DNA of 64,000 bases from a virus. Below, piece by piece: positions 58 through 50,230 of the stretch. The stretch lies in the IMG/VR virus record IMGVR_UViG_3300044633_000631, positions 14,741 through 78,740 of that record, one strand, 5' to 3'. A program made the translations under genes and the position numbers. The stretch's first letter is position 1, and each line of letters opens with the position of its first letter. The notes under the pieces were generated by a model. That model was not told the DNA's origin. It worked only from the letters and a program-made list of their open reading frames with translations, and did not search any database.

Positions 58-1299
58 TTAAGAATGGAATACAGGTAAGATACCTAATGATAATGCAGAA
101 GCTGTTTTACGTGTCCATGTACCACGTGCGTTAGCAATAGTACCAGTTGCAGTCAATGCTTTAGAAGTACCGCTTTCAACAACACCCATGTAATTTGCAT
201 CAGATGGGAATTCAGTTTTAGCACCATTCCAATCGTAACCAGCAGGAGATAATACATAACCCCAACGATTCCAAATAGAAGTTGTACCACCACCTTTGTA
301 TTTGTTAGCGTCACGGTAAACTTCAACTGAATCAGGAACCGTCAACTGTTCCATTGCAATCGCACCTGGCAATACAATGAATGAAGTTTTCTTATTAGCA
401 GCAAAAGTAGTTGCAGCACCAACGCCAGCACCAGTACGTAACATTGTTAATTCAGCAGCAGAAAGCGACTGAGCAGCACGTGTAGTGATTAGACGGAATT
501 TACCATTGAAGATTGTGTTAAAGTTAATGTTACCATCAACAATAGTTGTTTCATCGACAAAGTTAGCTGAACGAAATGAAGCCATAGTTTCAGGAGATAC
601 AATTAAGTACGCCCATTCTGGTTCATAATCTTTAAATGCCATACCAAATGCATTTAAGAAACCTTCAGCACGTGAAGCACCTTGATATGCATAGTTAGTA
701 ACCGCACCAGGAGCCACACCATTAGCAGTAACGATTTTCTCAGAACCAAGATCTACGTAGAAACCATATTTCTTATCTGTAGGATCGTTAGAGAATGTTT
801 GACCGCCAAGACCGGTTGAACCTGAACCTGTAGCAGCACCGTTTAATGCTTCAGCTACAGCAACACCTTTCAATACAGAAAGAATAGCATTGTGTTCGTC
901 TTGAGCGCGGGTTTCACCGAAGTCACGACCAATTTTAGCTAAGCCGTCTTGTTGTGTAACAATTTGTTGCATGTTAACTTTTTCGGCACCGTGTGTACGC
1001 ACAGTTTTAATATATGTGCTGTAGTCAGTGTCGTAATTGGTTTTGACGCCGTCTGCAGATTCAGTTAATGACGCAACGTTAATAGTTGGGTTTAACGGTT
1101 TCATCCAACGCATTTGACCAATAAAGGTTTCTGTGCTAGTATCAATTTGTGGATTAGAAGAAGTAATACCTGTGCCAGATAATTTTCTTGCATTGGTATA
1201 AGCTTCATCGCTGTAAGCACCAATTGCTTCTTGTAATACATAGTTATTTGTTAAGCCAGCCTGCATACCTGTAGGCAAGGTACTTGTTGTAACGCCCAT
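58..1299 (-). CDS. major capsid protein
   Basis: 413 aa, follows portal/MuF/scaffold; strongly biased codon usage; coat-protein-like Gly/Ala/Thr composition. Confidence 0.8.
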   Translation of the reverse strand: MGVTTSTLPTGMQAGLTNNYVLQEAIGAYSDEAYTNARKLSGTGITSSNPQIDTSTETFIGQMRWMKPLNPTINVASLTESADGVKTNYDTDYSTYIKTVRTHGAEKVNMQQIVTQQDGLAKIGRDFGETRAQDEHNAILSVLKGVAVAEALNGAATGSGSTGLGGQTFSNDPTDKKYGFYVDLGSEKIVTANGVAPGAVTNYAYQGASRAEGFLNAFGMAFKDYEPEWAYLIVSPETMASFRSANFVDETTIVDGNINFNTIFNGKFRLITTRAAQSLSAAELTMLRTGAGVGAATTFAANKKTSFIVLPGAIAMEQLTVPDSVEVYRDANKYKGGGTTSIWNRWGYVLSPAGYDWNGAKTEFPSDANYMGVVESGTSKALTATGTIANARGTWTRKTASALSLGILPVFHS

Positions 1300-1319
1300 T
1301 TTAATTTTCCTTAAAGTAT

Positions 1320-1958
1320 TTATTTCCTGCGAAGTGATCCTTCAGCAGCACGTTTAAGCACTTCATCTTGTGATAACTGGAATAAAGATTTATTCGAAGT
1401 ATCTTGAGAAGTACTGCTAGAACTTGTCTGACCGGCCCCTGTCGAAACTTTTGGTTTGAATAAGAAAGAATTGTTATCGTCTTCAGAAAATTGTTTTATA
1501 AAGGTTCTTAGATCAGTTCCTGATTTATGCACCCATACTCCATTTTCATTTTGTACAAGTTGCGATGCCACATCCATATATGCCATATCCGCAGCTTTAT
1601 CACTTCTAAACGTATATCCACTAAGAACAGATTTTACTTCTAAATCCCTAGCGAGTTCTATGTTACGTTTTGTTATCGTTTCCAATTTAGCATTGGCTTC
1701 CGCTAACTGAAGTTCATAAACTTCTTTATGTTTTCCTTCTTCTTGAAGTCTTTTTATTTCAGCTTCTTTCTCTTTTTGTTCATACTCAGCAGCTTTCTTT
1801 AACGCATTGTCTCTTTCGCTGTACGCTTTATCGAGTTTTTCTTTGATTGGTTTAAGAGCTTCTTGGATCTTCGTGTCCATATCATCCACAGGAGAATTGG
1901 TAGCAGTAGTATCCGGAGTAATATTATCAGTTTCTTTTTCTTCGACATTTTCGGTCAT
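1320..1958 (-). CDS. capsid scaffolding protein
   Basis: Likely start MTENVEE at 1958; acidic N-terminus, coiled coil, C-terminal FLFKPKVSTGAG motif; immediately upstream of capsid gene. Confidence 0.75.
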   Translation of the reverse strand: MTENVEEKETDNITPDTTATNSPVDDMDTKIQEALKPIKEKLDKAYSERDNALKKAAEYEQKEKEAEIKRLQEEGKHKEVYELQLAEANAKLETITKRNIELARDLEVKSVLSGYTFRSDKAADMAYMDVASQLVQNENGVWVHKSGTDLRTFIKQFSEDDNNSFLFKPKVSTGAGQTSSSSTSQDTSNKSLFQLSQDEVLKRAAEGSLRRK

Positions 1959-2033
1959 TTTATGTTTCCTTTGAGTACAACTCAGTGTTATAAAGTGAAT
2001 ACAATTCACCCTATAGGATATTTGTTTTTAGTA

Positions 2034-2053
2034 TTTAGGGTTAATTTAACGGG
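2034..2053 (-). promoter_or_regulatory. repeated 20-nt motif (putative phage RNAP promoter, class II), copy 1
   Basis: + strand TTTAGGGTTAATTTAACGGG, intergenic, upstream of scaffold/capsid. Confidence 0.7.
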
Positions 2054-2147
2054 TTCTATAATCCCTTAAGATAATTATCTATTAGTATATTTCTAAGGGA
2101 TAGATAATAGACTGATTAACTAAAGGGATTAAATAAAGGGGGACCGC

Positions 2148-2168
2148 TTTAGGGTTAATTTAACGGGG
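2148..2168 (-). promoter_or_regulatory. class II motif, copy 2
   Basis: + strand TTTAGGGTTAATTTAACGGGG. Confidence 0.7.
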
Positions 2169-2192
2169 TCTCTGTAAAGAACCTGTGCATTA

Positions 2193-2327
2193 TCATTTGT
2201 GTTTTGCTCCACATACAGTGCATGTGAACCCTTTCTTCTGATCTGGATTCATCACTCTCATTCCATTGCCATGAAGTTTATCCTGATTAGGATGCTGACA
2301 TGTACATCTTTTAATTTCTGCGTTCAT
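2193..2327 (-). CDS. small Cys/His (zinc-ribbon-like) protein, 44 aa, not in ORF track
   Basis: MNAEIKRCTCQHPNQDKLHGNGMRVMNPDQKKGFTCTVCGAKHK; starts 3 nt after the stop of the MuF-RNAP gene. Confidence 0.6.
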   Translation of the reverse strand: MNAEIKRCTCQHPNQDKLHGNGMRVMNPDQKKGFTCTVCGAKHK

Positions 2328-2330
2328 ATT

Positions 2331-5300
2331 TTAGCCTATACCGTAAAATCCCCAATCATCCTCAAATTTAGTAGGATCAGGAATATCGCTCATTACATCT
2401 TTCTTTGTTAAGATGTCTGCTTCTGTTAATGTTTTACCACCGACAACTGATTTACCAGCAACTGGAATTAATCCTTTATCAATAGCTTCTTCTAAATATT
2501 GATCATATAATTCTTTTGGAAAACCTCTAGCTAACATTTCATCTAAAGTAACCTTGACAGGGTTCTTATCTAGTACGTTAGCATATAGCTTTCTTATACC
2601 CTTCCGGGCCTCCAGCATATCGGCTGCATTGGCGAAAAACGCATCGTGAATGGTGCTTGTGGCAATCTTATTGTCTCGTCCCCATAAATGGAAATTCTTG
2701 ACCAACGTAGCATCGTTTGAGTGATTCCCGTTAACGGCATATGCTGTTCGTGCTTTAGTCGCGTCTGCAATGTCATTTATCTTTCCTTCAGCATTTACTA
2801 CTTGTTCCCACCAAGTGGCTTCTGTTTTCTGTTGCACTTGAACTAAATTATTAACCCAATTACCATCTTTATCTTTATAGACTAATCTTTCTTCAAATGA
2901 CTGGGTAAAGTTTTGCTCAATAACTTTTCCATCAAAATTAACCCATGGGACATTAGTCCAAGACTTGGGCAGCTTATTAGCATAAAATATTTCAAAACCT
3001 TTAGAGATATTTAATTTTTCTATAGGCTCTACTTTAAATACTTTAAATCCAGTTCTACGATCTTTTGGGCCTTTTACACCATAAATAAGATCAGCCAAGG
3101 TTCCGTCAGGTTTCCAACCATCAAATCTCTTTAAAAACTTTTCAGACAAAGCTTCTCCAGGCCTTAATCCTAATATTTCACTAACTCTATCAGGTAATAC
3201 ATAACCCTTTTTACGGGTACCTAATATACTAGTAGCGCCTATAGATTTCCAATCTAATGCAGCTTGTGAAGGCTTAGCATTAGTTAAATAATCTTCAGCT
3301 AGCCTACCAAAGAATTTAGTAAAATCTTTAAGAATAGGAACCTGCTCACCTAAATGTTCAGACATTAATTTAGCAATAGCTTGGAAGTCTTTTGGAGTGA
3401 CAACCATATCATATGAACGTGTCATCTTTTCTACTAGGTCTTTAGTAGCTGGATCAAGGAAGTATAATTGTTCCATTATCTCATCACCAGGGTCTAGTCC
3501 TTTATTAAAGATGTCTTTTACATTTTCTCTTAATTGCTTAAGTTCTGCAGTTGTTTCAGGATCAAACTTTTCATATCTTGCTGCACGTGCCGATATTTCA
3601 TTTAATACTTTGTCTCTATCACTAGCTCTAACTACTAATGTAGGTGCAAATGTTTCAGGCTTTTTAGTTACATTAATCAATTCTTCTTGTAATGCTGAAC
3701 TAAGATCTGCTATAGTCTTTTCTGTGTTTGCAGTAGCAGGTGTAAATCCTGCATCTTCTAAAGCCATTTCAGCAGCTTGTTTATTTGTCTTTAAATTATA
3801 AACACTCGCTTCATCTTTAATGATAGTGTCTTCACCAAACCTGTTTGACTTTAAAATACGTTTTTGAGCTTCTAATAATTTAAAGGCTCTTGAATCGGAA
3901 GGGACATTTAAAGATTTTAAATGCTCATCTAAAAATTCACCGAGTTCTTCAACAACTTGCATAGCAATATATTTCTTAGTATCGCCTTTTGAGCGCTGTT
4001 CAAATTTAGCTTTATTTTCAGCTATCTTTTCTTTAGAAAATTTTTCACCAGTCTTATGATCAAATGTTTTATATGTAGCACGCTCTTTTCTTTCATCTGT
4101 TAATTCAATATCAGAAGTATGTAGCCATTTAAACGTATTTTTTAATTCTGCAGGAGACAACTGACCTTTCATAGCCTTTGAAATTAACTCACCTTGCGAT
4201 TTAATAATCTCATCTACTGTGCCTACATAATTAGGATCTGTTTTATTATCAACACCTAATACTCTTAACAATCCTGCAGAATCTTGACGCTCGGATAATA
4301 AACCTTCTGTTACTTTTGTTTCAACAGGTTTTGCAGGTTTCTTTTCCAATACTTTTGCAAGTTTACCTTCAACATTAAGAATTCCAGTTCTTTCTCCAGC
4401 ACCATAAAACGTAACCATATTTTGAGCTTTTGCAGCTTTACGTAAATCTTTCTCATTTAAACCTAATCTCTCATTTAAAACTTTAAACCGAGGATCATTA
4501 AAAGTTGCAGCAGCAATTTCATCATATAGCCTGCGTTTCTGATTTGTAGGTATGACATTAGATAACGAGGCTAACTGTTTGTTCTTCGTAGTTAACGCAA
4601 TAATCTGAGCACCTGATGATGAAGCATCTTGTTCTAAAGCTAAAGCTGTTTTGTATGCATTCATAGAGCCGCCGGCTTTAAGATGATTATCTATCTTAGC
4701 AGCTTCCATAGCAAATCTCATGAACTTACCAAGTTCCTCACCTTCAATTAATTGCACCATATCTGATTCCAGAATGGCACGTAAATCTGCAGGTCTGGCT
4801 CTTAGCATTTTATTACCAAGGTCTACCATATCTGGCCACAATTTATCAGCAATCTTTTGGCGTCCAGTAAATGACAATGAATTATATCTACCTTCAAATA
4901 CATCATTTAGACCCCCCATAAAGGCACCTATCTGATCTCTGAAGTTTCTATATCCATCTTCGCCAAGAACCTTTTCTACTTCAGTATTTAAGAAAGGTCT
5001 AAATGACTCTCCCGATTGCGGACTAATAAGGCCACGATCATAGATCCTAGCCCGATGATCGACAAAAGCATGATTACTGAAAGCGTAACCATTATTTCTA
5101 AGCCAATCCATAGATTTAAATCGCTCATATGCATCACCACGAGAAGAAATATAATGTTTATACTCGTTTAAATCATTATACTTTTTAGCATTACCACGAT
5201 CATCTTCAAAGTATAGTAATTTCTGAGTAAAGTCGTAAAAGTCATTATCAATTTTATACTTGGATTTGGATGCCCAGTTAAGTGCATCTGCCATATTCTT

Positions 5301-7658
5301 GTCAACAAATTCTACAGGAAAATCTGAAAAACTATTTGTTGATGTAATAGGTATTCTAGTATCTTCTAAACCGAGGACACCATTATCAATAAAATACGTT
5401 TTATAACCCTCGCGAAATAATAACTTATTCTTATCCGTTGTTACACCGACACGAAGGCCGACATCCACTTTCCGTGTGAGCTGTGAGTATTTTTGTACAC
5501 GCGGATCAGTAACACGTATATTATATGATAAGGTGTCATAATAGGGACCAAATAAAGAACCACTAAGTCTACTTTTCATTCTTCTTTTTTGAACACCATA
5601 TGTTTCAACTTCAAAGAAATTATTAACATTTTTAGCTTCAAGTAGCTTCATACCTGTTTCATACCATTTACGTCTAGTGCCGTTCATATTAGCAAGATTA
5701 TATAAATCTCTTCCTAATGCAATAGCAAACTGGTCTCTATCAGGCATATCTGCCATACTTAGCCTGTGAGCAAACTTTAGATAAAATTGCTGTAATGCAG
5801 ATTCAGTTAAACGTTCTTTACCGTTAGGCATTCTTTTTAATACTAAAGGAATTTTGTAATCAAATGTATTACGTAACTCTCTAGCTATTTTAGGTGATAT
5901 AGTGTCTTCCCAGTTATTCTTAGCACGAATATTATCAATGAAATTATCATGTAAGTCTTGTAATTGAGTTGGACCTAATACTGGATCAATATAATTATCT
6001 TGTTTGAGTTTCTTCAATACGTTGATATCACTACGTATCTGAGTTTCAATAGCATCAGAAACATTCATTACATCAAATTTAATTTGACCTTGTACTACAG
6101 CTTTAAAATTATTCCACTGTTCACCATTATTTCTAAATCTAGTAAATAATATACGCAGGTTATCTACCACGACTGCCCTTTCATTAGATCCCATTTTCTC
6201 ACTAAGTAATTCATTAAATTCCTTAATAAATTCCTTATCTTTAGGCTTTAGAACATTACTTTGTTCTGTCAATCTTAAGTTATTATTTAGTACGGACGGA
6301 TTGGGTTGGTATAGTCTTGTATCTTCGTATCGACCTGTGACAGGATTAAAAATGAGTTGATCTTCTGTTGGAAGACTATTAAGTACTCTTGCCTTGGCAG
6401 ATTTCTTAGTATGAATAAGACCACCCCTATAATTAGTGAGTGATAATGTACCGTCTAATTCACCTGATTGCAGTAAATAATAATCTTTAAGTGTTTGTAT
6501 AAGCTTAGTGTTGCCAATTAAATCATCAGGTGTCATGATTGGAAGTTGCATAGCATCAAGTTTAGCTTTAGCATTAGCAAACTTTTTTGTATCATTTGGC
6601 AGTGTATATGTGGGATCGGTCATCCGTCTTAATTCTTTAATCCCAATAGAATTACCTTCGGGATTAGTAAACTGATCTAAGGTAAGCTGCCCGCTTTGGA
6701 ACATACTAACTTTTTTATAATCACCTAAATGCCTTAATTGTACATCTTGTGGCTGACGCTTTAGCCAATCATTGTATGATTCTCTAAGTGGTGTATTACC
6801 GTCATAAAAAGCCTTTTGAGCATCAGTTAAGTTCTCAATATTTCTACGTCTTACTTGTGCTACGCTTTCTAAATCTGCTATATCGCTCCATGATTTAAAT
6901 ACAGGAACTGTTGTAGATCTACAATGCCAATGTGCTGGTGGGAGATGTGTTGTATCGCTAATCGGATAAATTTCACCATCTCTATGGGCACATACTGGGG
7001 TTGTTCGTGCGTCAAGGACAGCAACATATTGCCATCCTTGTAACGCTTTTTCATTTGCTTTATAAATAGCATGATCAGCCTGAGAGGATACAGCTGTAAT
7101 GGCTGTTATTACCAGACCTTTCGACTGCATGCGAGTTATATTATGTACATTTCCTGCACGTACTTGTAGAGCTATTTCATCTACGCTTTTTCCGTCAGCT
7201 ATACCCTTACGTATAACTGCTTCTAATCTAATTTTTTCATTCTTGGCAATACCTGACCATCCCTGTTCCATTGTACCATTTTCGCTTAATGGATTTTTAA
7301 GTACAATTTCTTCAGAGATTCTATTTTTAGGTCTTTCAGTACGCCATATTTTACCCATTGCCACTTCAACTTTTTGATAAGCATATGAGAGTTGATCTGA
7401 GACAAGTGATGAAAGATCTTTTTGAACAGAATTATTAATTGACTTATAAGTCTTTCTTAACTCTTGATCAACTGCTTCTCTGAATCTTTCAAAACCCCTG
7501 CCTGATAGTTCAGCATCTTTAATTAATTTATCTAGTCTAACAACATGACCATCAATTACTAAATCAACTTTACCAGAGACTCTTCTCTCATACAGACGGA
7601 TCATTGCTGCGCGATCTAGTGTTTTGTCGTATATTTGTGTATTACTATTAATGGTCAT
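2331..7658 (-). CDS. MuF/SPP1 gp7-like minor head protein fused to a T7-family single-subunit RNA polymerase (putative virion RNAP)
   Basis: N-terminal ~350 aa: WQYVAVLDARTTPVC..RDG..PPAHWHCRSTTVPV (MuF). C-terminal: DHRARIY, motif A EQDASSSGAQ, motif B RKAAKAQNMVTFYG, NGNHSNDA, motif C TIHDAF. Confidence 0.9.
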   Translation of the reverse strand: MTINSNTQIYDKTLDRAAMIRLYERRVSGKVDLVIDGHVVRLDKLIKDAELSGRGFERFREAVDQELRKTYKSINNSVQKDLSSLVSDQLSYAYQKVEVAMGKIWRTERPKNRISEEIVLKNPLSENGTMEQGWSGIAKNEKIRLEAVIRKGIADGKSVDEIALQVRAGNVHNITRMQSKGLVITAITAVSSQADHAIYKANEKALQGWQYVAVLDARTTPVCAHRDGEIYPISDTTHLPPAHWHCRSTTVPVFKSWSDIADLESVAQVRRRNIENLTDAQKAFYDGNTPLRESYNDWLKRQPQDVQLRHLGDYKKVSMFQSGQLTLDQFTNPEGNSIGIKELRRMTDPTYTLPNDTKKFANAKAKLDAMQLPIMTPDDLIGNTKLIQTLKDYYLLQSGELDGTLSLTNYRGGLIHTKKSAKARVLNSLPTEDQLIFNPVTGRYEDTRLYQPNPSVLNNNLRLTEQSNVLKPKDKEFIKEFNELLSEKMGSNERAVVVDNLRILFTRFRNNGEQWNNFKAVVQGQIKFDVMNVSDAIETQIRSDINVLKKLKQDNYIDPVLGPTQLQDLHDNFIDNIRAKNNWEDTISPKIARELRNTFDYKIPLVLKRMPNGKERLTESALQQFYLKFAHRLSMADMPDRDQFAIALGRDLYNLANMNGTRRKWYETGMKLLEAKNVNNFFEVETYGVQKRRMKSRLSGSLFGPYYDTLSYNIRVTDPRVQKYSQLTRKVDVGLRVGVTTDKNKLLFREGYKTYFIDNGVLGLEDTRIPITSTNSFSDFPVEFVDKNMADALNWASKSKYKIDNDFYDFTQKLLYFEDDRGNAKKYNDLNEYKHYISSRGDAYERFKSMDWLRNNGYAFSNHAFVDHRARIYDRGLISPQSGESFRPFLNTEVEKVLGEDGYRNFRDQIGAFMGGLNDVFEGRYNSLSFTGRQKIADKLWPDMVDLGNKMLRARPADLRAILESDMVQLIEGEELGKFMRFAMEAAKIDNHLKAGGSMNAYKTALALEQDASSSGAQIIALTTKNKQLASLSNVIPTNQKRRLYDEIAAATFNDPRFKVLNERLGLNEKDLRKAAKAQNMVTFYGAGERTGILNVEGKLAKVLEKKPAKPVETKVTEGLLSERQDSAGLLRVLGVDNKTDPNYVGTVDEIIKSQGELISKAMKGQLSPAELKNTFKWLHTSDIELTDERKERATYKTFDHKTGEKFSKEKIAENKAKFEQRSKGDTKKYIAMQVVEELGEFLDEHLKSLNVPSDSRAFKLLEAQKRILKSNRFGEDTIIKDEASVYNLKTNKQAAEMALEDAGFTPATANTEKTIADLSSALQEELINVTKKPETFAPTLVVRASDRDKVLNEISARAARYEKFDPETTAELKQLRENVKDIFNKGLDPGDEIMEQLYFLDPATKDLVEKMTRSYDMVVTPKDFQAIAKLMSEHLGEQVPILKDFTKFFGRLAEDYLTNAKPSQAALDWKSIGATSILGTRKKGYVLPDRVSEILGLRPGEALSEKFLKRFDGWKPDGTLADLIYGVKGPKDRRTGFKVFKVEPIEKLNISKGFEIFYANKLPKSWTNVPWVNFDGKVIEQNFTQSFEERLVYKDKDGNWVNNLVQVQQKTEATWWEQVVNAEGKINDIADATKARTAYAVNGNHSNDATLVKNFHLWGRDNKIATSTIHDAFFANAADMLEARKGIRKLYANVLDKNPVKVTLDEMLARGFPKELYDQYLEEAIDKGLIPVAGKSVVGGKTLTEADILTKKDVMSDIPDPTKFEDDWGFYGIG

Positions 7659-7677: not shown

Positions 7678-9276
7678 TTATTCCTTCATAGGTTTTGGTT
7701 TACTACCTGCAGCAGCCGCTTCTGACTGCATAGCATATTGATCATTATATTTTGTTGCAGCAGGAATGATTAATTCATCAGCGTTTACTTCTTGTAATGC
7801 GGCTTCATCATCATATTCAGAATCAAGAATATCATTTGCTTTTAACATCTGTAACCACACGCTTCTTGGTAATAAACCTGATTGATACCATTGAGTAACA
7901 AGATTCAACCAATCAGCACCTAAAGGCACTGGATCAAAATCTGCGGATAAATTAAACACAATATCACATGAATCAATTTGCAGGCCATATCTCCAGTTAA
8001 CCATTAAGCCTATTACTTGCTTTAATGTACTAGAGATTTTTGTACTCAACACACTTAATTGTGCCGTTTGAGCAGCATTACGAATTTCTAATGCAATACC
8101 TGATTGTTCATTTTCAGTTGTAAGCATTCTAATGCCAAGTTTAGCCATTTCATCAATAGATGCTTCAATAGCTTTTTGCATATCTTGTAATGCGTCTGTG
8201 GGTGTTTTTAAGACATCTGCTTTATCATCTTGGCGTAATCTTATCCAAGACCCTAATCCAGCGTCTACAATTTCATCAAATTGTTCATCAGGCATATCTG
8301 ACATAATAACAGGTGTATAAGTAGCTGCACCGTATAGTAAATGATTTCGTCTACTAATTTTATTATATAGGCTAATCTCTTTATCTACGATAGGCATTAA
8401 TAATGGCATAATAGGTTCTATATTACCATTAACAGGCCATGCAGGAATATGCTTTAGCGGTTCCCCGTTATTAAGTATATTGTCAAATGTTTCTATTAAT
8501 TCAAAATGGCCTGAAGGTAGTAATTGCTGCGCTTTCTCACCAATACCCCCTATTTTAAGAGTTTGATCACCATTATCTTTAGTTGTGCCCATGAACTTGC
8601 GGATTTGGTAATTACCTTGTTCGTTTAACTCATGCACCCATACCGTAGGGACTCTCAGAGCATGGAATTCATTAGTAGTATAATCTTCTGAGTAACCTTT
8701 AACAATTACATATTTTAAAACTGTTTTACCAAATACATCTACAGTTGTTGCCCAATTAACAATTGTTTCAGCTTTTTGCAAAATAGGATATGGTTTAATC
8801 ATATCTCTAGTTTCTTTATCTAAGTTCTCAACATCATTAACGGATGGGTGGTCTACAAATACCCATGCACGGGATGTATTGATCTCTTCCCACAATAGTT
8901 CATCAAGAAATGCCACTAGTGTAGAGTCATCACGTCCGATATTGTTGATAAGCCAATCTTTAGCTTCTTCAGGAACTTCATCTGGTAATGTCAATATAGG
9001 AGCTTTTCTTAATAAACCCCCAACAAGCATCTTAGCAAATTGTGCAGTAATGCCTGGTAATTCAGCTTCTGACTTATAAAAGTCATATTGAGCTTGGCTC
9101 ATTGTTGTAGAGAAGGGTATCAGCAAATTGCTAAATCTAATTAGATCAATATACTGATCCAACTCTTTTACAGTACGTTCCCCATTGCATACAGCACGTG
9201 CCTTATTCCACGAAGGTTTAAGATACTCATACGCTTGACAAGGATCCGCAACTGTCTTAGTAGGGCCGTATGTCAT
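7678..9276 (-). CDS. portal protein (DUF4055-like)
   Basis: 532 aa; Y-x-x-Y-K-x-x-A N-terminal motif, ESGIALEIR-like motif (EQSGIALEIR); position upstream of MuF. Confidence 0.8.
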   Translation of the reverse strand: MTYGPTKTVADPCQAYEYLKPSWNKARAVCNGERTVKELDQYIDLIRFSNLLIPFSTTMSQAQYDFYKSEAELPGITAQFAKMLVGGLLRKAPILTLPDEVPEEAKDWLINNIGRDDSTLVAFLDELLWEEINTSRAWVFVDHPSVNDVENLDKETRDMIKPYPILQKAETIVNWATTVDVFGKTVLKYVIVKGYSEDYTTNEFHALRVPTVWVHELNEQGNYQIRKFMGTTKDNGDQTLKIGGIGEKAQQLLPSGHFELIETFDNILNNGEPLKHIPAWPVNGNIEPIMPLLMPIVDKEISLYNKISRRNHLLYGAATYTPVIMSDMPDEQFDEIVDAGLGSWIRLRQDDKADVLKTPTDALQDMQKAIEASIDEMAKLGIRMLTTENEQSGIALEIRNAAQTAQLSVLSTKISSTLKQVIGLMVNWRYGLQIDSCDIVFNLSADFDPVPLGADWLNLVTQWYQSGLLPRSVWLQMLKANDILDSEYDDEAALQEVNADELIIPAATKYNDQYAMQSEAAAAGSKPKPMKE

Positions 9277-9931: not shown

Positions 9932-10090
9932 TTATACCGCTGCAACAATAACGCCAATAGCAACTTCTTTTGCTACTTCTTGTACATCAGGATTAGTCAC
10001 AACTTTTTCTGCAACATCTGCTGCTTCGTGTACAGTGTGATTAATAGCTTTTCCTGCATCTTTAAATGCTTTATCTAAACTGTTTGTCAT
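9932..10090 (-). CDS. small protein, 52 aa, hydrophobic C-terminus (not in ORF track)
   Basis: MTNSLDKAFKDAGKAINHTVHEAADVAEKVVTNPDVQEVAKEVAIGVIVAAV; ATGA overlap with upstream stop. Confidence 0.6.
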   Translation of the reverse strand: MTNSLDKAFKDAGKAINHTVHEAADVAEKVVTNPDVQEVAKEVAIGVIVAAV

Positions 10091-10878
10091 GATACAACCT
10101 CTACAATTGTGTCAACAGTTACGTCGACAACATCTTCTACAATGCTGTGAGGTACAATAGGAACTAGTACTTCAACAACCTCTTCTACTGAATCTTTTAA
10201 ATCATCTAAAAATGACATACCAATCTCCGGAAATAATCCTGTATTAATAAAATTAACTACTAGTTCTTTCTCAAAGCCTAACGATTCTAAAACTCTTGGC
10301 GTATGAGGATTTTGTTTTTGCATCTTACAGTAAAAATTTTGTTGATCTATATATAAATCTTCGCTAGAAGAATAATTTACATTTGTTAAATAACACGAAA
10401 GTGAATCGTGTGCTAGCTTTAAAAATGCATCTAATTCGGTTATAGTGTTTATATTACTCGCAGCTACCATATCTTTACTGAATATAGCGCGTGCCCATTC
10501 AGGCAACTCGCGCTCTCTCTTCCAGCTATACTTCTTCGTCTCTGAAGCAAACCAACTAGTTAATGGATGACTATCTTCAGACACAGGAGAGTAATCAAGA
10601 AATGCGCCCGTTACCTTATTAGGGCCAGCCACAATATCTACACCAAAGATAGGAGAATTAGAGGTGATTTTTGGGAATATACAGAGATGCATCATATAGA
10701 TTTTCTTAGTGTCCCGAAGGTCAATAATATCTAAATGAGCTCTACGTATATAATGGTTACTATACACTCTATTTTCCCAACCGAAATCATGCTCTTCATT
10801 CGTATCTTCAGCATAGTTATCTAGTAACACTTTGAATTGTTCAGCCTGAACTGTTAATCTTTCAAAGATTTCACTCAT
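10087..10878 (-). CDS. pcyX: ferredoxin-dependent bilin reductase, PcyX/PcyA family
   Basis: RRAHLD, MMHLCIFP..PIFGVDIVAG..VTGAFLDYSP, RELPEWARAIFS, QNFYC..QKQNPHTPRVL; Asp at the PcyA Glu76 position, as described for PcyX. Confidence 0.85.
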   Translation of the reverse strand: MSEIFERLTVQAEQFKVLLDNYAEDTNEEHDFGWENRVYSNHYIRRAHLDIIDLRDTKKIYMMHLCIFPKITSNSPIFGVDIVAGPNKVTGAFLDYSPVSEDSHPLTSWFASETKKYSWKRERELPEWARAIFSKDMVAASNINTITELDAFLKLAHDSLSCYLTNVNYSSSEDLYIDQQNFYCKMQKQNPHTPRVLESLGFEKELVVNFINTGLFPEIGMSFLDDLKDSVEEVVEVLVPIVPHSIVEDVVDVTVDTIVEVVS

Positions 10879-14109: not shown

Positions 14110-17100
14110 TTAAAATAAATATGTACGTGGAATGTCGAGAATGCTTACTGTTGATGTTGTGCCTACAGTAACAGTAACCCAATCAGGGATACTATATTGC
14201 TGTTTGGCAGACAAGAAACTGCCTGTTAAAGTTGTACTTGCAGAAGGACTCTTGACCAATGTTTGTAAAACGGTGCCTGTGGTGATATCCACTAAGATTA
14301 CAGCTCCTTCGATTGCAACTGTGCTACTAATTACCGTACCTGTTGTTATATATTTAACTTCATCTTCGCCAACTACATTATCAGTGTCGGTAATAAGAGA
14401 GGTTAACGGATATATAGTTGTCGCATCGATAGCGGCTACTGTAGAAGCATTTCGAGAATCAACATAAGCTTTAACAGCGTGTTCTGTTGGAACGGCTACA
14501 TTAGAATCACCGGATAAGGTCGCATCACTAGAAAACTCATTAATAGTTTCACCAAGCTGTGCTCCAATGGAACCGAGCTTTAATGATGTTAACCCTGCTA
14601 GATCGAAAGCATTAGCATTAAGTGTAGCACGACCAGTAGCCTGATCAATCCTGAAATATTCACCTACTCTAAAGTTACCATCTTGATCGGTACTTACATA
14701 GAAAACACGCCCTGGATAAGCTTCTTCGGTTTCATTACCTTGAGCTGCCGGCTGTGTTGGGAGACCTGGATAATTAGTTGTTGTTACACCGCCAGTACCA
14801 ATACTTAAAAAGTCATGTCCTGTCAAACGAATCTGACTATATTTTGTTCTTACAGTCGCAACAGTCCCGCTAGGCGATCCTGTAGGTTTTTCCTGTGATA
14901 AAATTAATACTAATGTACTAGTATTATTAATATATGTGCCAGAAACACTTTGAATAACGTATGCATAAGTATCACCCACTAAGGAAATACTCGAGCCAGG
15001 CTTAGGCGCTGCGGTCAGATTCGTAACTACTAACACAAAACCTTTCTGATTCTCTAAAGCTCCAGCTGATACAGTACCTGTACCACCACTTGTAAATGTA
15101 AGTGCATCGCCTAATGTAAATGTGCCTGTGGCATTTTTCACATAAAGTTTATTGGCGGAATACTGAACATTAGTCACAGTAGCGCTACCGTTGGGGCCTG
15201 TTACTATATCGTTTTCGTTTATCGAGCCATTGCCATATAGGAAGTTTATTTGTTGACCAACTAAAGCACCTGTAATCGGCGTTTCAGACGTATCATACCC
15301 TCTTGAGACTGCACCCCAAGTACCATAGCTGTTATTGCCATTTAATGCACGAATGAAACCACCGCCCGTAGCTGAATAACCAAAGTAGCAATAATATGTG
15401 AAACAAGATACAATCTCAGCTTTACCACCATCTTTTACCCAGTAGCCTACACCATTATCTGAGATAACAGTATAGCCATGGAAGATCATAGTTCTAGCAC
15501 CAGCGGCATGAATACTACCGTCAATTAATGCCCCAATAGCTCCACTACAAATCGCAGCACATTCCAAAACATAAGGCGATTTGGTCATAACAGGCGATGC
15601 TGGGTTAAATCTTACAACTACACCTTTTATTGTGGATGTTGTGATATCTTCCGCAGTCGTACCTGTAACCCACCCTGTCATACCTTTGAAGGTCATTTTA
15701 TTAAGGATAGACCCATTGCCCATCAAGAACATTGAAGAATTGGCGTTGCTTGTTATACCATCTGTTGATAACCCAGCTTTAGCTTGAATGGTAACAGTAC
15801 GCTGACTATCGCCTACAATCGCTGTATGATCTGGAACAATAATAGGTAATTGTTCATCATAGGTACCAGTCTTAACGAAAATAGTTGCGTTAGTACCACA
15901 CTGTTCTGTAGCATACTTTAAAGTAGCAAATGGTGTAGCTAAATTTCTACCTGAATCTAATGTATCGACACCGTGCGGTGCTACATAGAATATTTTATTA
16001 GATTCTGTTGCACCAGTCCAGTCAATTAGATTGCCTGAAACACCTACCGTTAACGAACGCCCTGTATCACCATTTACAATAGGCGGAAGGACATCCGAAC
16101 CGCCGACAACAAATTGTGACCATTTAGCGGAGTCTTGAACAAATGTCGGCGCTGAAGTGTGAGTTGCAGTTGCAATGTAAGCAGAACCTACAGCATCTTT
16201 AACAATATCGTCAGGTAAATATAAAGTACTTGTTGCCCATGCTCCACGCCATCTAATACCACTATTATACTTACGCCAAGCACCTGCCGCTAAATCTGTG
16301 GCAAATACTGTAGATGCATGTGGTAATAGTGTAATATAAGTATTACCACCATAAGTAACAACTTCATCTATGCCGTAAGCCGTAGCAGTTGTCCAGTCCC
16401 CCTTGTTAGAAATACCGCCTACAATTCTAGTCCAAGATGTTGTGACTGTAGGATTAACATTAGTACTATCGATTACTGCTTGGAATAAAGAACCGCCATA
16501 AGTAATTGTTTGTCCAATCTTATATGCTGTTGCGGGTGACCATACACCTAAGTAAGAAAAGCCTGCGAGATAAATATCCCAATAGCTTGTTTCTGTAGGT
16601 AGATGACCTGTTGTATCTACTTTAGCTTTATAAATATTTGCACCATATGCTACCAAATCGTTAGGCACATACACTGTTGAATTATTATAAATAGCCTTTA
16701 CAGAAACACCTTCAACAAATTTATCCCAGAAAGCTGTTGCTGTGGGTAAATTGTTAGTTGAATCTTGTTTAGCAATATAAGTAGAACCACCATATACAAC
16801 TACATCATTCTTTTGATAAATGCCTGATGAAGAATATGTGCCTTCATACTGAATACCATCTGCAAATTGAGACCAATAAGCTGAGTTAGGAGGTGTTACA
16901 TTAACGGTATCGACAATACATACATATACTTTACCCCCATGTGCTACACCATCACCAATACGATAATTAGTTGAAGTGCTGAATACACCTTTAAATTTAA
17001 AACCCTCTACCATTAACGCCCAATGTGAGGTAGCGGTAGGTAATACACCTGCGGTTTTTAATGCAAATGTATAAACATAAACATTACCGCCATATTTTAC

Positions 17101-17187
17101 AACATCGTTTGTTTCGTAAGATGTAGTTACCAACCACTCTCCCGCGAACTGAAATCTTAGCTTCCCTAAGTCTATATATTGTGTCAT
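14110..17187 (-). CDS. large fibre/spike protein with carbohydrate-binding-like repeats and a probable beta-helix
   Basis: About 7 W/Y-x4-Y-x2-(N/G)DVV-x-YGG-x-x-Y repeats; FYVAPHGVD..G.....PFATLKYA and IFVKTGTYDEQLPI motifs typical of pectin-lyase-like folds. Confidence 0.7.
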   Translation of the reverse strand: MTQYIDLGKLRFQFAGEWLVTTSYETNDVVKYGGNVYVYTFALKTAGVLPTATSHWALMVEGFKFKGVFSTSTNYRIGDGVAHGGKVYVCIVDTVNVTPPNSAYWSQFADGIQYEGTYSSSGIYQKNDVVVYGGSTYIAKQDSTNNLPTATAFWDKFVEGVSVKAIYNNSTVYVPNDLVAYGANIYKAKVDTTGHLPTETSYWDIYLAGFSYLGVWSPATAYKIGQTITYGGSLFQAVIDSTNVNPTVTTSWTRIVGGISNKGDWTTATAYGIDEVVTYGGNTYITLLPHASTVFATDLAAGAWRKYNSGIRWRGAWATSTLYLPDDIVKDAVGSAYIATATHTSAPTFVQDSAKWSQFVVGGSDVLPPIVNGDTGRSLTVGVSGNLIDWTGATESNKIFYVAPHGVDTLDSGRNLATPFATLKYATEQCGTNATIFVKTGTYDEQLPIIVPDHTAIVGDSQRTVTIQAKAGLSTDGITSNANSSMFLMGNGSILNKMTFKGMTGWVTGTTAEDITTSTIKGVVVRFNPASPVMTKSPYVLECAAICSGAIGALIDGSIHAAGARTMIFHGYTVISDNGVGYWVKDGGKAEIVSCFTYYCYFGYSATGGGFIRALNGNNSYGTWGAVSRGYDTSETPITGALVGQQINFLYGNGSINENDIVTGPNGSATVTNVQYSANKLYVKNATGTFTLGDALTFTSGGTGTVSAGALENQKGFVLVVTNLTAAPKPGSSISLVGDTYAYVIQSVSGTYINNTSTLVLILSQEKPTGSPSGTVATVRTKYSQIRLTGHDFLSIGTGGVTTTNYPGLPTQPAAQGNETEEAYPGRVFYVSTDQDGNFRVGEYFRIDQATGRATLNANAFDLAGLTSLKLGSIGAQLGETINEFSSDATLSGDSNVAVPTEHAVKAYVDSRNASTVAAIDATTIYPLTSLITDTDNVVGEDEVKYITTGTVISSTVAIEGAVILVDITTGTVLQTLVKSPSASTTLTGSFLSAKQQYSIPDWVTVTVGTTSTVSILDIPRTYLF

Positions 17188-23369: not shown

Positions 23370-23389
23370 TTAGGGTTAATTTAACGGGG
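23370..23389 (-). promoter_or_regulatory. class II motif, copy 3
   Basis: TTAGGGTTAATTTAACGGGG upstream of the terminase operon. Confidence 0.7.
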
Positions 23390-23523
23390 TTTTCTATATG
23401 TCTCAGCGCTTTGCCCTTTAGGAAAAAGCCAGGGATCCCCTAAGGGATATATTTATTAGATTAATTATTATTGATTAATAACTAAGGATTAACAACTAAT
23501 GGATTATAATTCAGGGGAGCGGC

Positions 23524-23544
23524 TTTAGGGTTAATTTAACGGGG
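23524..23544 (-). promoter_or_regulatory. class II motif, copy 4
   Basis: TTTAGGGTTAATTTAACGGGG. Confidence 0.7.
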
Positions 23545-23550
23545 TTAAGT

Positions 23551-28799: not shown

Positions 28800-28819
28800 T
28801 TAGGGTTAATTTAACGGGG
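28800..28819 (-). promoter_or_regulatory. class II motif, copy 5
   Basis: TTAGGGTTAATTTAACGGGG. Confidence 0.7.
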
Positions 28820-28866
28820 TTGGCACACTCGCATTACAACCCGAACCCGTTAAGGTACTGCTTTTG

Positions 28867-42251: not shown

Positions 42252-42271
42252 TTAGGGTTAATTTAACGGGG
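42252..42271 (-). promoter_or_regulatory. class II motif, copy 6
   Basis: TTAGGGTTAATTTAACGGGG, 27 nt upstream of SSB; overlaps hairpin GGGTCTCTA/TAGAGACCC (42269-42294). Confidence 0.72.
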
Positions 42272-42301
42272 TCTCTAAGCATTTATAGAGACCCACATTT
42301 A

Positions 42302-45363: not shown

Positions 45364-47583
45364 CTATGCGAAAGCGTATTCGCTTTCTAGAATTAAATTA
45401 ATATCAAGATCACCCATCTCAAGATAAGTAAGATCTCCGTCAATATCATCCATTATTGGAAACAATGGATTATCTTTATAAAGTTCTACAAATGTCTCGC
45501 GAACTATTCTAAAGAGATTTGGCATGTCAGCAAATAAACAACCATAGCTGTCATGAATTGTTGTAATTGTAAAATCACAACGGTGTGTAGTAAGTGCTAA
45601 GTGTGCTGCATCTAAACTATGAATAACGTTAGGTGCTGCTCCTTGAGACTGCTTACCTTTACTAGGAACCACATCTTCAATAAAACATATTGCTAATTGA
45701 AAAGTGTTTTCATAATAACCTGTAGATTTACGTGACCCAACTGGTGGCCCATACTGTACATAAATCTTTTTAACTTTACCTTCTGTATAATTTTGTACCA
45801 CAGGAAAGTTTACTATTGGAACATTCCATGATAAAAATTCTTCAATTTTCTCACAGTTTCTTCCGGCATTCTCAAATATATTTAACAGCCTCATTGGCTT
45901 CTCTAATGAAGCTTTACAATCTTCAAATACTAATCTGCCCAGCCAAGCTCCCCATTTATGCTCCATATGAAGTAGCAAGTCTATTCCATGCTTTTTTGCA
46001 TCAAGGATTTGTTGCTCTCCCAATCCATAGCTGCTACCTCCATAAGGAAGAGTCATAGTGTTTCTTTTAACTATCTTCCTTCTTTGTTTCAAATCCTTTA
46101 TACGATTCCAAAATACAGGTGCTGCAACAGAGCCAATATCAGCCCATTGTTGTTTATAGGCTTTAATTTGAGCTACTAGTTGATTCCTAATTTCAGACTT
46201 AGGTTCGGATGCAGTAATCTTTTTCTTTAATTTAATTAAGCCATCTATAAAATCTTCACATTGAAAGATTAAATCCGCTGGCATTCTTGCTATGTCATTA
46301 GATATTTTATTCCATACATGTTCGGCAACATATGCATATAAATCACCTGGAAGTTCTAATGGAATTAAATTAACATATGGAGCTGTTATTTCATCTCTTG
46401 TTAATGCAGATAAATGTTGTGAGCCGTTCGTTGATCCGTCAATAAAACATTCAACATGTGACTCATACTCTAAATATCTTGGTCCCAATTTTAAAGCATT
46501 TCTTAATTCAATACATGCACTTAAGAATTGCCATGGCTTATCTCCTGACATCCATCCTTGATTTACTTTTGGACTTTCTGCATATGATAATAAAATCTCT
46601 TGATTGTCTAATACCCACTGATATCGGTCTTTGAGATTGATCTTATCCGTCTTTGCACCATCTTCACGTCCTGATGAACCTGCCCAGTTACTGGCGATAG
46701 ATACACATAGCCAAAAGAAACCCTCTTCACCAATTACTTTCTTATCTTGACGCATTAAAAGACCTTTAGCAATATCACTAGATTGTTCATGGAGATATGC
46801 CGTTGTTGGATATTTCCTTCCACGGAAATCAAGGTAATACATATGGTAAAATACAGTATCCATGAACTTATCTGCTATAGATAGAATAGCTTTTGTTTCC
46901 CTTAATTTAGTAGTCTTAGCTTGAGGATTTTGCTGCTCCCATATATCACTAAATGCATCAGTATGGTTATTCAATGCCCATTTAGAAACATTATAAACTT
47001 CTTTGTTTATTTGCCAACCCGTATTTAAGCTCTTATTTACTGAATCAAATACTATAGGATGTGTTGCAGGTGTTAATTTTGTTGGAACATCTTTATTACC
47101 CGTCTTGACTAATACTTGTCCAGTAGGGTGTTTGAATTCTGTATAAGATTCATATGGTGTTACTGAAGGTAATTTACCCTTGGCACCTTCTCTGCTTACA
47201 CTTTCCCATAGTAATTGTATTGTCGCATCATCTAAGACTTCTACAATATATGTTGCATGACCATTACCAGCAGAACCTAGTACTGCTCTAAGCATTCCAA
47301 GCTCTTCAAATGAGTATAGTATGAATGCACCAGTCTTAGCCGCAACAGATGAATCTTTCTTTAAACCTCGTCTTACTGAATGCCCAATAATGCTAATGAC
47401 TTCTACCATTAATATTTGTTTGTTTACAGCACCTCTCTTTGGACGAGTGTATAAGTATACGTTAGATATTATTACATCTAATACGCTTTCTAAGTCAATT
47501 TCTTTTAGAAATTTTAGCGGACTTTGAGGAGCTATTTCTAATTGCATCCTTCTTTTTAATGACTTCAATAGTTGTATTCTCAT
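45364..47583 (-). CDS. T7-family single-subunit DNA-directed RNA polymerase
   Basis: DFRGRKYP, DKPWQFL, motif A DGSTNGSQHL, motif B RKIVKRNTMTLPYG, APNVIHSLDAAHL, motif C IHDSYG. Confidence 0.96.
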   Translation of the reverse strand: MRIQLLKSLKRRMQLEIAPQSPLKFLKEIDLESVLDVIISNVYLYTRPKRGAVNKQILMVEVISIIGHSVRRGLKKDSSVAAKTGAFILYSFEELGMLRAVLGSAGNGHATYIVEVLDDATIQLLWESVSREGAKGKLPSVTPYESYTEFKHPTGQVLVKTGNKDVPTKLTPATHPIVFDSVNKSLNTGWQINKEVYNVSKWALNNHTDAFSDIWEQQNPQAKTTKLRETKAILSIADKFMDTVFYHMYYLDFRGRKYPTTAYLHEQSSDIAKGLLMRQDKKVIGEEGFFWLCVSIASNWAGSSGREDGAKTDKINLKDRYQWVLDNQEILLSYAESPKVNQGWMSGDKPWQFLSACIELRNALKLGPRYLEYESHVECFIDGSTNGSQHLSALTRDEITAPYVNLIPLELPGDLYAYVAEHVWNKISNDIARMPADLIFQCEDFIDGLIKLKKKITASEPKSEIRNQLVAQIKAYKQQWADIGSVAAPVFWNRIKDLKQRRKIVKRNTMTLPYGGSSYGLGEQQILDAKKHGIDLLLHMEHKWGAWLGRLVFEDCKASLEKPMRLLNIFENAGRNCEKIEEFLSWNVPIVNFPVVQNYTEGKVKKIYVQYGPPVGSRKSTGYYENTFQLAICFIEDVVPSKGKQSQGAAPNVIHSLDAAHLALTTHRCDFTITTIHDSYGCLFADMPNLFRIVRETFVELYKDNPLFPIMDDIDGDLTYLEMGDLDINLILESEYAFA

Positions 47584-47785
47584 CTGATCCTTTGCTGTTT
47601 AAAATACTGGAGAACGCACATAGTAGTAATAAATTAAATATCGGCATTGTCACCACTATTTACTAAATGTACTACTGTTGCCATAATTACTACAGGTGTA
47701 GTCAATCCGAATAATACGGAAGCTAACCATACTGTTGCCGCATAATTTAATGTATTAGTCATAGAAAGAAAAAAATAAGGGTTAA

Positions 47786-47843
47786 CCCTCCCACATCCCT
47801 AATACACCCCCAATTAAGGGAATGTATTAGGGATGTGGGAGGG
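47786..47843. terminator. perfect 21-bp inverted repeat (terminator or RNase III-type hairpin)
   Basis: CCCTCCCACATCCCTAATACA (47786-47806) / TGTATTAGGGATGTGGGAGGG (47823-47843); T-rich tract follows on minus strand. Confidence 0.65.
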
Positions 47844-47880
47844 GATATTCTTACTTACAGAGTCAACAGACTCTGACTTT

Positions 47881-48273
47881 CTATGGCAGTGTTCGAAGCT
47901 CTTTAAGTAGTTCGTAATCCTTTTTGCCTATATAGATCGGGTTGAGGGACCCTTTTAAATTTACAACTGGATAAACACTTATTCCATCTTTTACAAATTC
48001 CTTTAAAAGATAGATATCTTCAACATCTAACTTTTTAGCACTGAAAGTATATTCCGGTGGTTTATCTTTTTTGTCCACTGGATAGTGACCTTCTAGAACA
48101 ATATAACCATTCCACTTAGCCTCCTTTGCTAAACGTCTTAATTCACGTTTAGCTTTTATAGCTTCAAGTTTTTTCTTCTTCTTAAAATCCTCATCAGCTT
48201 CTTTTATGAAGTCTTGACAGTCTTTAGTAAAGAAGATCCCAACTGCAATTGCCACAATCCAAAGAGGGTTCAT
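47881..48273 (-). CDS. early protein with N-terminal TM anchor
   Basis: 130 aa; AGGAGG RBS. Confidence 0.6.
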   Translation of the reverse strand: MNPLWIVAIAVGIFFTKDCQDFIKEADEDFKKKKKLEAIKAKRELRRLAKEAKWNGYIVLEGHYPVDKKDKPPEYTFSAKKLDVEDIYLLKEFVKDGISVYPVVNLKGSLNPIYIGKKDYELLKELRTLP

Positions 48274-48545
48274 AGTAACAACCCTCCTAAAAGGAATGGT
48301 ACAATGAGTATAATGTCAAACACTAGCCTCCCGATATTAAGCAAATAGTGATACATATACCAGCTGTTGATTCCAACTGGCATTGTTACAACTGCAACAG
48401 CTCCAATTACAACTGCTGTAGCAGCTATAGTTGATGTTACAATTTCCACTTGAGCCTCAATAGCGGTCTCAGCAGGTGTTCTTGAGTCTTCTAGTTTGTT
48501 TAAAACTAAGGCACCCAAACCAACAAGTAATACTAATGGTATCAT
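48270..48545 (-). CDS. early hydrophobic membrane protein
   Basis: 91 aa, about 3 hydrophobic segments. Confidence 0.55.
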   Translation of the reverse strand: MIPLVLLVGLGALVLNKLEDSRTPAETAIEAQVEIVTSTIAATAVVIGAVAVVTMPVGINSWYMYHYLLNIGRLVFDIILIVPFLLGGLLL

Positions 48546-48823: not shown

Positions 48824-48852
48824 TGTAAGCTTCCTCTTGGAATGTGAAGTTA

Positions 48853-49881: not shown

Positions 49882-49941
49882 TATTAGGAATTAACAATTA
49901 ATGGATAATGACTAAAGGGTTAATTGAGGGGGGACGTCTGA

Positions 49942-49958
49942 AGGGTTAATTCAACGGG
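49942..49958 (-). promoter_or_regulatory. class II motif, variant copy 7
   Basis: AGGGTTAATTCAACGGG (1 mismatch in the core). Confidence 0.5.
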
Positions 49959-49959
49959 T

Positions 49960-50230
49960 TCGGTGCTGAAAACTGCGACACGCCCCGCACTGAGAGTGCC
50001 AGTTCTGCGACCAGAAACTGCCCTACACGGCACGCGGACGGCACGCTGCCCCCTCAGTGATGCCCCCGTCTCAGGCGGCCCACACACGCCCAACTTTGAG
50101 AGGTGTGAAATCTGCCCGTCTCTGCCACGCTGAGGCTGCCCCATGCCTGTCGTATAGCTGGCCACTCAGTCGCCACGTCTACCCCCGTTCCTGTGCGAAT
50201 AAATGCCCCAACCGTAGTCAGGGCATCTCA
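49960..50230. other. GC-rich non-coding block (possible genome terminus/packaging or origin region)
   Basis: Abrupt GC rise in an AT-rich genome, between phoH and the early genes; no credible ORF. Confidence 0.45.

Follow-up and report, generated by a model that had tools for sequence, protein, structure and literature searches.

A MuF minor head protein fused to a T7-type RNA polymerase in siphophages: a candidate capsid-delivered enzyme

We analysed a window of 64,000 nucleotides (nt) from a viral genome (IMG/VR record IMGVR_UViG_3300044633_000631, positions 14,741 to 78,740 of that record). Its head gene module includes one gene that encodes both a MuF-type minor head protein and a single-subunit RNA polymerase. 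The source record has 78,740 bp, is 100% complete according to CheckV, and repeats 58 bp at its ends, as a circular assembly would. A single strand carries all the genes, and the genome has 37% GC. The virus is a siphophage, with a TMP_3-type tape measure and tail-fibre genes. The fusion gene runs on the minus strand, from window position 7658 down to 2331, as one open reading frame (ORF) of 1775 codons with a single terminal stop. It follows the portal gene by 19 nt and precedes the scaffold and major head protein genes (Table 1). The packaging and head operon to which it belongs starts at 23545, and the gap between the portal and fusion genes contains no promoter motif. In relatives the order portal, fusion, scaffold, capsid is conserved, and most related loci have a portal-sized ORF directly upstream. 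An earlier reading of this DNA from its letters only (hereafter, the original prediction) had described an uninterrupted ORF of 1775 amino acids (aa) in the portal-MuF-scaffold-capsid slot, of which the first ~350 residues were a MuF domain. These points were borne out, with the precision that the coding strand is the minus strand.

The N-terminal part of the protein is a member of the SPP1 gp7/Mu F family by profile hidden Markov models, by motif and by gene position. It matched the head morphogenesis family phrog_241 across residues 1-349 (5e-62), and Phage_Mu_F (PF04233) at residues 146-250 with 53.3 bits for a cut-off of 29.6. The same protein matched RNA_pol (PF00940) with 39 bits for a cut-off of 22, and the RNA polymerase family phrog_414 at 2e-22. 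Hence, the two Pfam families by which the fusion was expected to be recognised both passed their curated cut-offs. The N-terminus fits the MuF core pattern LD.RT..C ... PP.H..CRS, and the strings LDARTT (residues 215-220) and PPAHWHCRS (240-248) occur once each in the protein. Residues L215, D216, T219, C223, P240, P241, H243, C246, R247 and S248 of this core were invariant among 47 homologs. In a structural model of residues 1-600 (overall predicted local distance difference test, pLDDT, of 85.3), the MuF part had values mostly between 87 and 96 up to around residue 330, and residues 350-359 were the sole low-confidence stretch. Foldseek matched this model to nothing in the PDB at E <= 0.001, i.e., no solved MuF-like structure was recognised. 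A predicted complex between the portal (532 aa) and MuF residues 1-350, computed with our own alignments, scored 0.00, which is evidence neither way. The PF04233 profile matched the whole genome only once, in the fusion gene. The fusion protein must thus be the source of any head function of MuF.

The long frame is not an artefact of the assembly. This phage recurs in lake-water metagenomes, with 18 studies containing all or some of the stretch. One DNA contig of a lake metagenome spans positions 1111-7625 with zero differences, and a contig from a run of a different study spans 2761-4400, also with zero differences. These contigs and more than 400 homologous clusters all keep one frame, so that the stop or frameshift between the two domains, envisaged in the original prediction as what would undo it, was not seen. 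Metatranscriptome contigs also cover the fusion gene and bridge the linker between MuF and polymerase.

The rest of the protein has the catalytic motifs of the T7 family, and each motif quoted in the original prediction was found exactly once (Table 1). Residues D867, R869, R871, Y873 and H1646-D1649 were invariant in the alignment of homologs. Among 28 diverse representatives, down to ~14-20% identity, the catalytic D1011 was invariant, and K1074, K1077, Y1085, G1086, D1649 and D1672 were conserved in at least 90%. A search of the PDB by sequence (phmmer) with the whole fusion protein gave no match at E <= 1. The polymerase is too divergent for this approach, and structure and profile comparisons were therefore required. 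The model of residues 576-1775 (pLDDT of 81.6, predicted template modelling score, pTM, of 0.77) matched T7 RNA polymerase at 1e-13 with Foldseek. VIA-align superposed it on the T7 RNA polymerase elongation complex (Z 31, 539 residues, 3.4 A), on mitochondrial polymerases (Z 22-31), and on crystal structures of the mini virion RNA polymerase (mini-vRNAP) of phage N4 (Z 17.6-21.8). In the T7 complexes that include the N-terminal domain, the model pairs from its residue ~1-11 onward with T7 residue ~45-73. Hence, the N-terminal domain of the T7 enzyme has a counterpart in the fused polymerase. With hhalign, a profile of 53 homologs matched residues 394-878 of T7 RNA polymerase (probability 99.1, E 1.6e-18). 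The fold is thus that of T7 RNA polymerase, and motifs A, B and C, D.R.R.Y and the specificity-loop region of the two enzymes align. Together, the conserved catalytic motifs and the predicted fold argue for a working enzyme, apparently active.

The fusion is widespread. A word-indexed search retrieved 418 clusters (at 90% identity) of 976-3107 aa, typically ~1540 aa, nearly all annotated with both Pfam domains, and an exhaustive search of the 50% representatives retrieved 143 clusters. Among the 28 diverse representatives sampled, MuF was found in 25 and the RNA_pol cut-off was reached by 21. In IMG/VR we confirmed the fusion at no fewer than 354 loci. Across these loci, and in representatives down to ~20% identity, the polymerase cargo is conserved. 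The homolog searches showed no unfused form of this polymerase subfamily, the shorter matches looking like contig fragments. Only three cultured or named phages matched across the polymerase part: EBPR siphovirus 1 (58% identity) and the Naomviridae roseophages DSS3_VP1 and DSS3_PM1. The Naomviridae gene, DSS3VP1_00028, occupies the same slot between portal and coat genes and encodes an orthologous fusion, 31% identical across 73% of the query. It is annotated only as 'minor head protein-like'. Databases likewise record both Pfam domains, but the only name they give to the protein is head morphogenesis protein. Naomviridae roseophages have deoxyuridine-containing DNA (dU-DNA), whereas the genome studied here has no homolog of Dcd (PF00383) or Dtm (PF12917). 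We therefore rejected a link between the fusion and the uracil-DNA trait. Our full-text literature searches found no paper describing a fusion of MuF with a polymerase. This agrees with the original prediction, which knew of no characterised example; what it had missed is the wide spread of the fusion, including in cultured Naomviridae, and the published, conceptually close precedent of Thermus phage P23-45 (PMC10770324).

Some relatives have an interrupted fusion gene. We found group I introns in the fusion genes of L037, L074, L077 and L094 (Rfam, 66-89 bits), and one at another site in L040; over all five relatives the range was 56-89 bits. In L077 (9188-10074) the first exon ends with ...DLRKASKA, inside motif B; next come a 198-aa ORF, which probably codes for a homing endonuclease, and the second exon. 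The gene of EBPR siphovirus 1 is annotated in two parts around an HNH gene (gp47 / HNH / gp49) that lies at the place corresponding to the L077 intron ORF, and gave no Rfam intron at the gathering threshold. Group I introns of relatives thus split the gene exactly within the codons of motif B, and the interrupted forms are genes with introns rather than pseudogenes. The introns home into the catalytic O-helix, a usual target in polymerase genes that are essential.

The genome encodes a second, stand-alone polymerase of 739 aa, a canonical T7-like enzyme. Along the collinear motif blocks it shares only 22-26% identity with the fused polymerase. Its gene lies within a block of small genes without annotation, ~2.4 kb from where the block starts. 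The block comes after the tail genes and a terminator and before the replication genes, where an early gene would be expected. T7 RNA polymerase is an early, soluble, unfused enzyme of 883 aa, transcribed by the host polymerase, and its true analogue here is this gene rather than the fusion. Both polymerases were present in all seven complete genomes checked, i.e., this one, the cultured DSS3_VP1 (where the stand-alone enzyme has 735 aa), and five uncultured relatives. In one complete relative (G003, the record behind L048), the Pfam match of the stand-alone polymerase lies in two separate open frames of 548 and 404 aa (71554-73603), and this gene too may be interrupted by a mobile element. 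A hairpin with a 39-nt arm followed by a T-run (window 47773-47856, minus strand) separates the first early genes from the stand-alone polymerase gene. It is likely a terminator or attenuator, and could gate the expression of the polymerase.

We found a 21-nt motif, A[AC]CCCGTTAAATTAACCCTAA, in six exact copies for a chance expectation of 0.09. All six are intergenic and on the coding strand (Table 1). A variant copy heads the early operon; three of its positions differ here, and the copy is perfect in the relative G001. The motif core was found right after the fusion stop in ~30 relatives, and each of five complete relatives has 5-8 strand-specific copies. In one relative a perfect core precedes its own stand-alone polymerase gene by ~2.3 kb (gene start estimated). 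This pattern is the one expected of a promoter for a single-subunit polymerase, and the motif is a candidate promoter for either enzyme. It contains AATTAACCCT, a sequence of the T3 promoter. In the metatranscriptomes the summed depth was ~15-125 on the fusion gene versus ~230-590 on the scaffold and capsid genes, and the DNA runs were nearly flat, although contig depth cannot rank genes and DNA may be present. The step in depth is no more than a hint that the tandem copies at 2035-2169 are active. A 44-aa ORF with a zinc-ribbon-like C.C ... C..C pattern (window 2196-2327, minus strand) lies upstream of these copies and starts 4 nt past the fusion stop.

Table 1. Features of the fusion gene, its neighbours and the promoter-like motifs, in window coordinates.
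Feature	Coordinates	Strand	Residues and evidence
MuF-RNA polymerase fusion gene, whole	2331..7658	(-)	1775 aa + stop; ORF list, translation; both Pfam domains above cut-offs
MuF / SPP1 gp7-type minor head (head morphogenesis) domain	6612..7658	(-)	Residues 1-349; phrog_241, PF04233 at residues 146-250
Flexible linker	6582..6611	(-)	Residues 350-359; pLDDT <50 in the 1-600 model
T7-fold single-subunit RNA polymerase region	2334..6581	(-)	Residues 360-1775; model, Foldseek, VIA-align, hhalign
DHRARIY, counterpart of T7 D.RGR.Y	5040..5060	(-)	Residues 867-873; aligns with T7 MDWRGRVY and with the stand-alone polymerase of the phage
Motif A, DASSSGAQ	4605..4628	(-)	Residues 1011-1018, catalytic Asp1011; aligns with T7 DGSCSGIQ
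Motif B, RKAAKAQNMVTFYG	4401..4442	(-)	Residues 1073-1086 (K1077, Y1085, G1086); aligns with T7 RSVTKRSVMTLAYG
Optional insertion module	3645..4334	(-)	Residues 1109-1338, ~22 residues past motif B; presence/absence in relatives
Beta-hairpin region, versus T7 specificity-loop segment	2835..2957	(-)	Residues 1568-1608; strands at model residues 993-1033; hhalign pairs the strand-rich segment 1567-1608 with the T7 specificity-loop region (WTNVPWVNFDGK... with T7 CAVHWVTPDGF...)
HSND and motif C, TIHDAF	2637..2723	(-)	Residues 1646-1649 and 1669-1674, catalytic Asp1672; align with HSLD / TIHDSY of the stand-alone polymerase
Portal gene	7678..9276	(-)	19 nt upstream of the fusion gene; phrog_145 2.8e-56, DUF4055
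Scaffold gene	1320-2009	(-)	Downstream of the fusion gene; PHROGs (phrog_206 / phrog_247 for the scaffold and major head pair)
Major head protein gene	58-1299	(-)	Downstream of the fusion gene; PHROGs (phrog_206 / phrog_247 for the scaffold and major head pair)
Stand-alone canonical T7-like RNA polymerase, putative non-virion polymerase	45364..47583	(-)	739 aa; PF00940 3.7e-65, phrog_414 7e-112
Two tandem motif copies	2035-2055 and 2149-2169	(-)	Between fusion and scaffold genes; exact
Two tandem motif copies	23370..23545	(-)	Upstream of the packaging/head operon containing the fusion gene; exact
Motif copy	28800..28820	(-)	Exact
Motif copy	42252..42272	(-)	Upstream of the replication genes; exact
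Variant motif copy	49940..49960	(-)	3 mismatches; heads the early operon, ~2.4 kb before the gene of the stand-alone polymerase

K-mer enrichment gave a single motif family and no second class of promoters. A repeat scan of 47500-50300 for N4-type hairpin promoters gave nothing convincing. Sigma-70-like sites were not enriched in the early region (18 found for 26 expected), which is a weak result. The sole recognisable signal before the early operon is of phage type, and some reader of that signal should therefore be present before the stand-alone polymerase is made. Between the post-tail terminator and this first early motif lies a stretch of ~230 nt (49960-50200, minus strand) that looks much richer in GC than the genome at large, with short repeated GGGGCAGC / GAGACGGG words. 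It folds no better than shuffled sequences (z -0.34). Packaging, the end of the genome or an origin may be located there.

In SPP1, gp7 is a virion protein bound to the portal. We consider with moderate confidence that the fusion protein is an early polymerase packaged in the capsid and ejected with the genome, by analogy with N4 gp50 or the tape-measure fusion of P23-45. The protein would be made late, and its MuF domain would bring it into the procapsid at the portal, as for SPP1 gp7. The tethered T7-fold polymerase, presumably catalytically competent, would thereby enter the virion. Upon infection it would be released together with the DNA, and would start transcription of the early operon at the phage-type promoter. 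This operon includes the 739-aa polymerase gene, whose product would then take over middle and late transcription. We infer packaging, ejection, activity, and the assignment of promoters to polymerases from SPP1 gp7, MuF-effector fusions, N4 and P23-45. The original prediction had likewise proposed that MuF delivers the polymerase for host-independent early transcription. The anatomy fits this idea, with a sole MuF gene, a late head operon, a conserved polymerase, a second polymerase in the early region, and an early promoter of phage type; delivery itself, and early transcription independent of the host, are proposed from the analogies just named. The synthesis of a polymerase from a late head operon fits its packaging for the next cycle. 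The layout, MuF followed by a C-terminal enzyme, also matches the pattern of MuF-effector fusions, which are regarded as delivered effectors (Iyer et al. 2017, polyvalent proteins, PMC5512222).

Several observations weigh against this interpretation. In structure, the modelled polymerase resembles T7 RNA polymerase (Z 31) more than it does the virion enzyme of N4 (Z 21.8), so that homology provides no argument for packaging. We found one family of promoter motifs, while the virion and non-virion enzymes of N4 and P23-45 use distinct promoters. Promoters of the host type ahead of the early genes could have escaped our scan. The 1775-aa protein is far bigger than characterised MuF proteins, and the paper on Naomviridae makes no mention of any RNA polymerase.

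One may ask whether the polymerase leaves the cell in which it is made. It might be a late intracellular enzyme, from which MuF is cleaved off or which MuF places at the assembling heads, and which serves late transcription or couples transcription to packaging. The gene is indeed in the late operon and, with one promoter family only, a second polymerase of similar specificity could boost late expression. Yet, the stand-alone polymerase is already a dedicated enzyme and perfect promoter copies precede the late genes. Furthermore, the fusion to the sole MuF is kept in hundreds of loci with no unfused form seen, and the linker is short and has no known protease site. We regard an undelivered enzyme as unlikely. 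At least as unlikely, in our opinion, is that the polymerase is packaged and ejected but works mainly as a motor pulling the genome into the cell by transcription, or makes the primers for the first round of replication. Transcription pulls in part of the T7 genome during entry, and T7-like and mitochondrial polymerases can prime replication. The anatomy expected is identical to that of an early polymerase. The enzyme would be attached to a protein of the portal and DNA end, and the phage-type promoter at the start of the early region adjoins the GC-rich 230 nt that may be a genome end. On the other hand, the genome encodes its own primase-helicase, and early transcription is compatible with entry, such that both roles would probably coincide. 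A polymerase fold co-opted for a non-catalytic role, e.g., a DNA-binding plug or a DNA-end anchor in the capsid that extends the DNA binding of SPP1 gp7, could account for the strong divergence from canonical enzymes (only 39 bits in Pfam, no PDB match by sequence) and for the large lineage-specific insertions, but is very improbable given that both catalytic Asp, the Lys and Tyr of motif B and HS.D are conserved down to ~14-20% identity and that introns home into motif B.

Virion-carried RNA polymerases known so far are of a few unrelated designs: N4 gp50, the multisubunit enzymes of phiKZ and AR9, gp66 of crAss-like phages, and the tape-measure fusion of P23-45. Among them, N4 gp50 (Schitoviridae) offers a close parallel to an early polymerase delivered from the capsid. 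It is likewise a T7-fold single-subunit polymerase encoded among late and virion genes, and N4 likewise encodes another T7-like polymerase, which serves later genes. By the same logic a packaged enzyme would start the infection, with packaging being putative in our case. However, the fusion is not a member of the N4 family by sequence: phrog_2206 is absent from its 15 PHROG matches, and only a module of 230 aa is common. N4 gp50 has ~3500 aa, with N- and C-terminal regions for ejection and encapsidation, whereas the fusion has 1775 aa, starts with MuF and ends in the thumb and palm of the polymerase. Also, N4 is a podophage with hairpin promoters, and the phage described here is a siphophage in which the scan did not find such promoters. 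N4-type virion polymerases were reported only in N4-like phages, and no MuF-polymerase fusion was reported (PMC5512222).

The relay between a virion and a non-virion polymerase found in N4 and P23-45 has a counterpart in the gene layout here, with one polymerase gene in the structural module and the other in the early region. In P23-45, gp96 is a virion RNA polymerase fused to the tape measure, which transcribes the gene of the non-virion polymerase gp64, and two distinct promoter motifs were shown experimentally (PMC10770324). Like our phage, P23-45 is a siphophage that fuses a polymerase to a structural protein of the virion, and both have giant tape measures (5002 aa in P23-45 versus 5362 aa here). 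Its polymerases are of the two-barrel, cellular type and the carrier is the tape measure, whereas here the enzyme is of the T7 type and the carrier is the head protein MuF. Polymorphic toxins fused to MuF carry a small variable toxin or an RNase. In contrast, the cargo studied here is a polymerase of 1400 aa that does not vary but is conserved clade-wide.

The polymerase region contains an optional module of 230 aa, past motif B (Table 1). It is absent in the relative L022, at 91% nucleotide identity, and has no flanking repeats. In P0014, P0015 and P0017 the module lies before motif A. The pLDDT was low across the module in the polymerase model. The module matched no family in Pfam or PHROGs (Atlas search <=0.82), nor did tblastn match it to any cultured phage. 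It is, however, 41% identical (1e-45) to residues 933-1148 of P0176, a 3748-aa N4-like virion RNA polymerase that is a true member of phrog_2206 (E = 0). To see this module shared with an N4-like virion polymerase is a new observation. It is not an intron, since it keeps the reading frame, its protein sequence is conserved and the window has no Rfam match; nor is it an intein, since it lacks a Cys/Ser start, a His-Asn end and flanking repeats. Its distribution suggests an exchange between MuF-polymerases and the type of polymerases whose prototype, N4 gp50, is packaged, a point in favour of a packaged early polymerase.

These data allow a broader and more speculative proposal, which we hold as tentative and somewhat doubtful. 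A clade of siphophages of 70-80 kb from freshwater, marine and wastewater environments, including Naomviridae, might use MuF to carry a capsid-delivered T7-type polymerase, as a third independent solution after N4 and the two-barrel fusions. This enzyme might use the same promoter family as the ordinary polymerase, which would result in a self-amplifying relay without host polymerase. The module, which occupies two different insertion sites in MuF-polymerases and a third in an N4-like virion polymerase, might then mark a shared gene pool of packaged polymerases.

If a polymerase is indeed delivered from the capsid, the MuF-tethered T7-type enzyme would add a head-protein route to the virion-borne RNA polymerases of phages. 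MuF, a poorly understood but very common head protein, would gain a concrete role in cargo delivery, and the start of the infection would be explained for a large and environmentally abundant clade. There would also be practical interest in a compact, promoter-specific polymerase whose candidate promoter is defined to 21 nt. The cultured members DSS3_VP1 and DSS3_PM1, on Ruegeria pomeroyi, make the idea directly testable.

The tape measure is a single ORF of 5362 aa that spans the contig junction (genome 11605..1 and 78740..74199, i.e., window 59459-64000 plus L003:2-11605, minus strand). Its N-terminus is of the TMP_3 type, an SLT transglycosylase lies around residues 3050-3150, and C-terminal motifs of tape measures occur twice. 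It is about as long as the tape measure of P23-45 (5002 aa), an extremely long-tailed phage, and by this analogy the tail is likely very long. In the late operon, a protein of 1025 aa (window 14110-17187, minus strand) has CBM_5_12 repeats and a weak pectinesterase-like match, and may be a tail spike or a depolymerase. The lack of RNA contigs beyond 10400 coincides with loose ends that are strain differences, and was discarded as a finding. A gene for a ferredoxin-dependent bilin reductase (PF05996, 1.9e-22; window 10087-10878, minus strand) adjoins the lysozyme gene. RNA-library and DNA contigs of related strains break at ~10050-10090, and the bilin reductase gene may thus be strain-variable.

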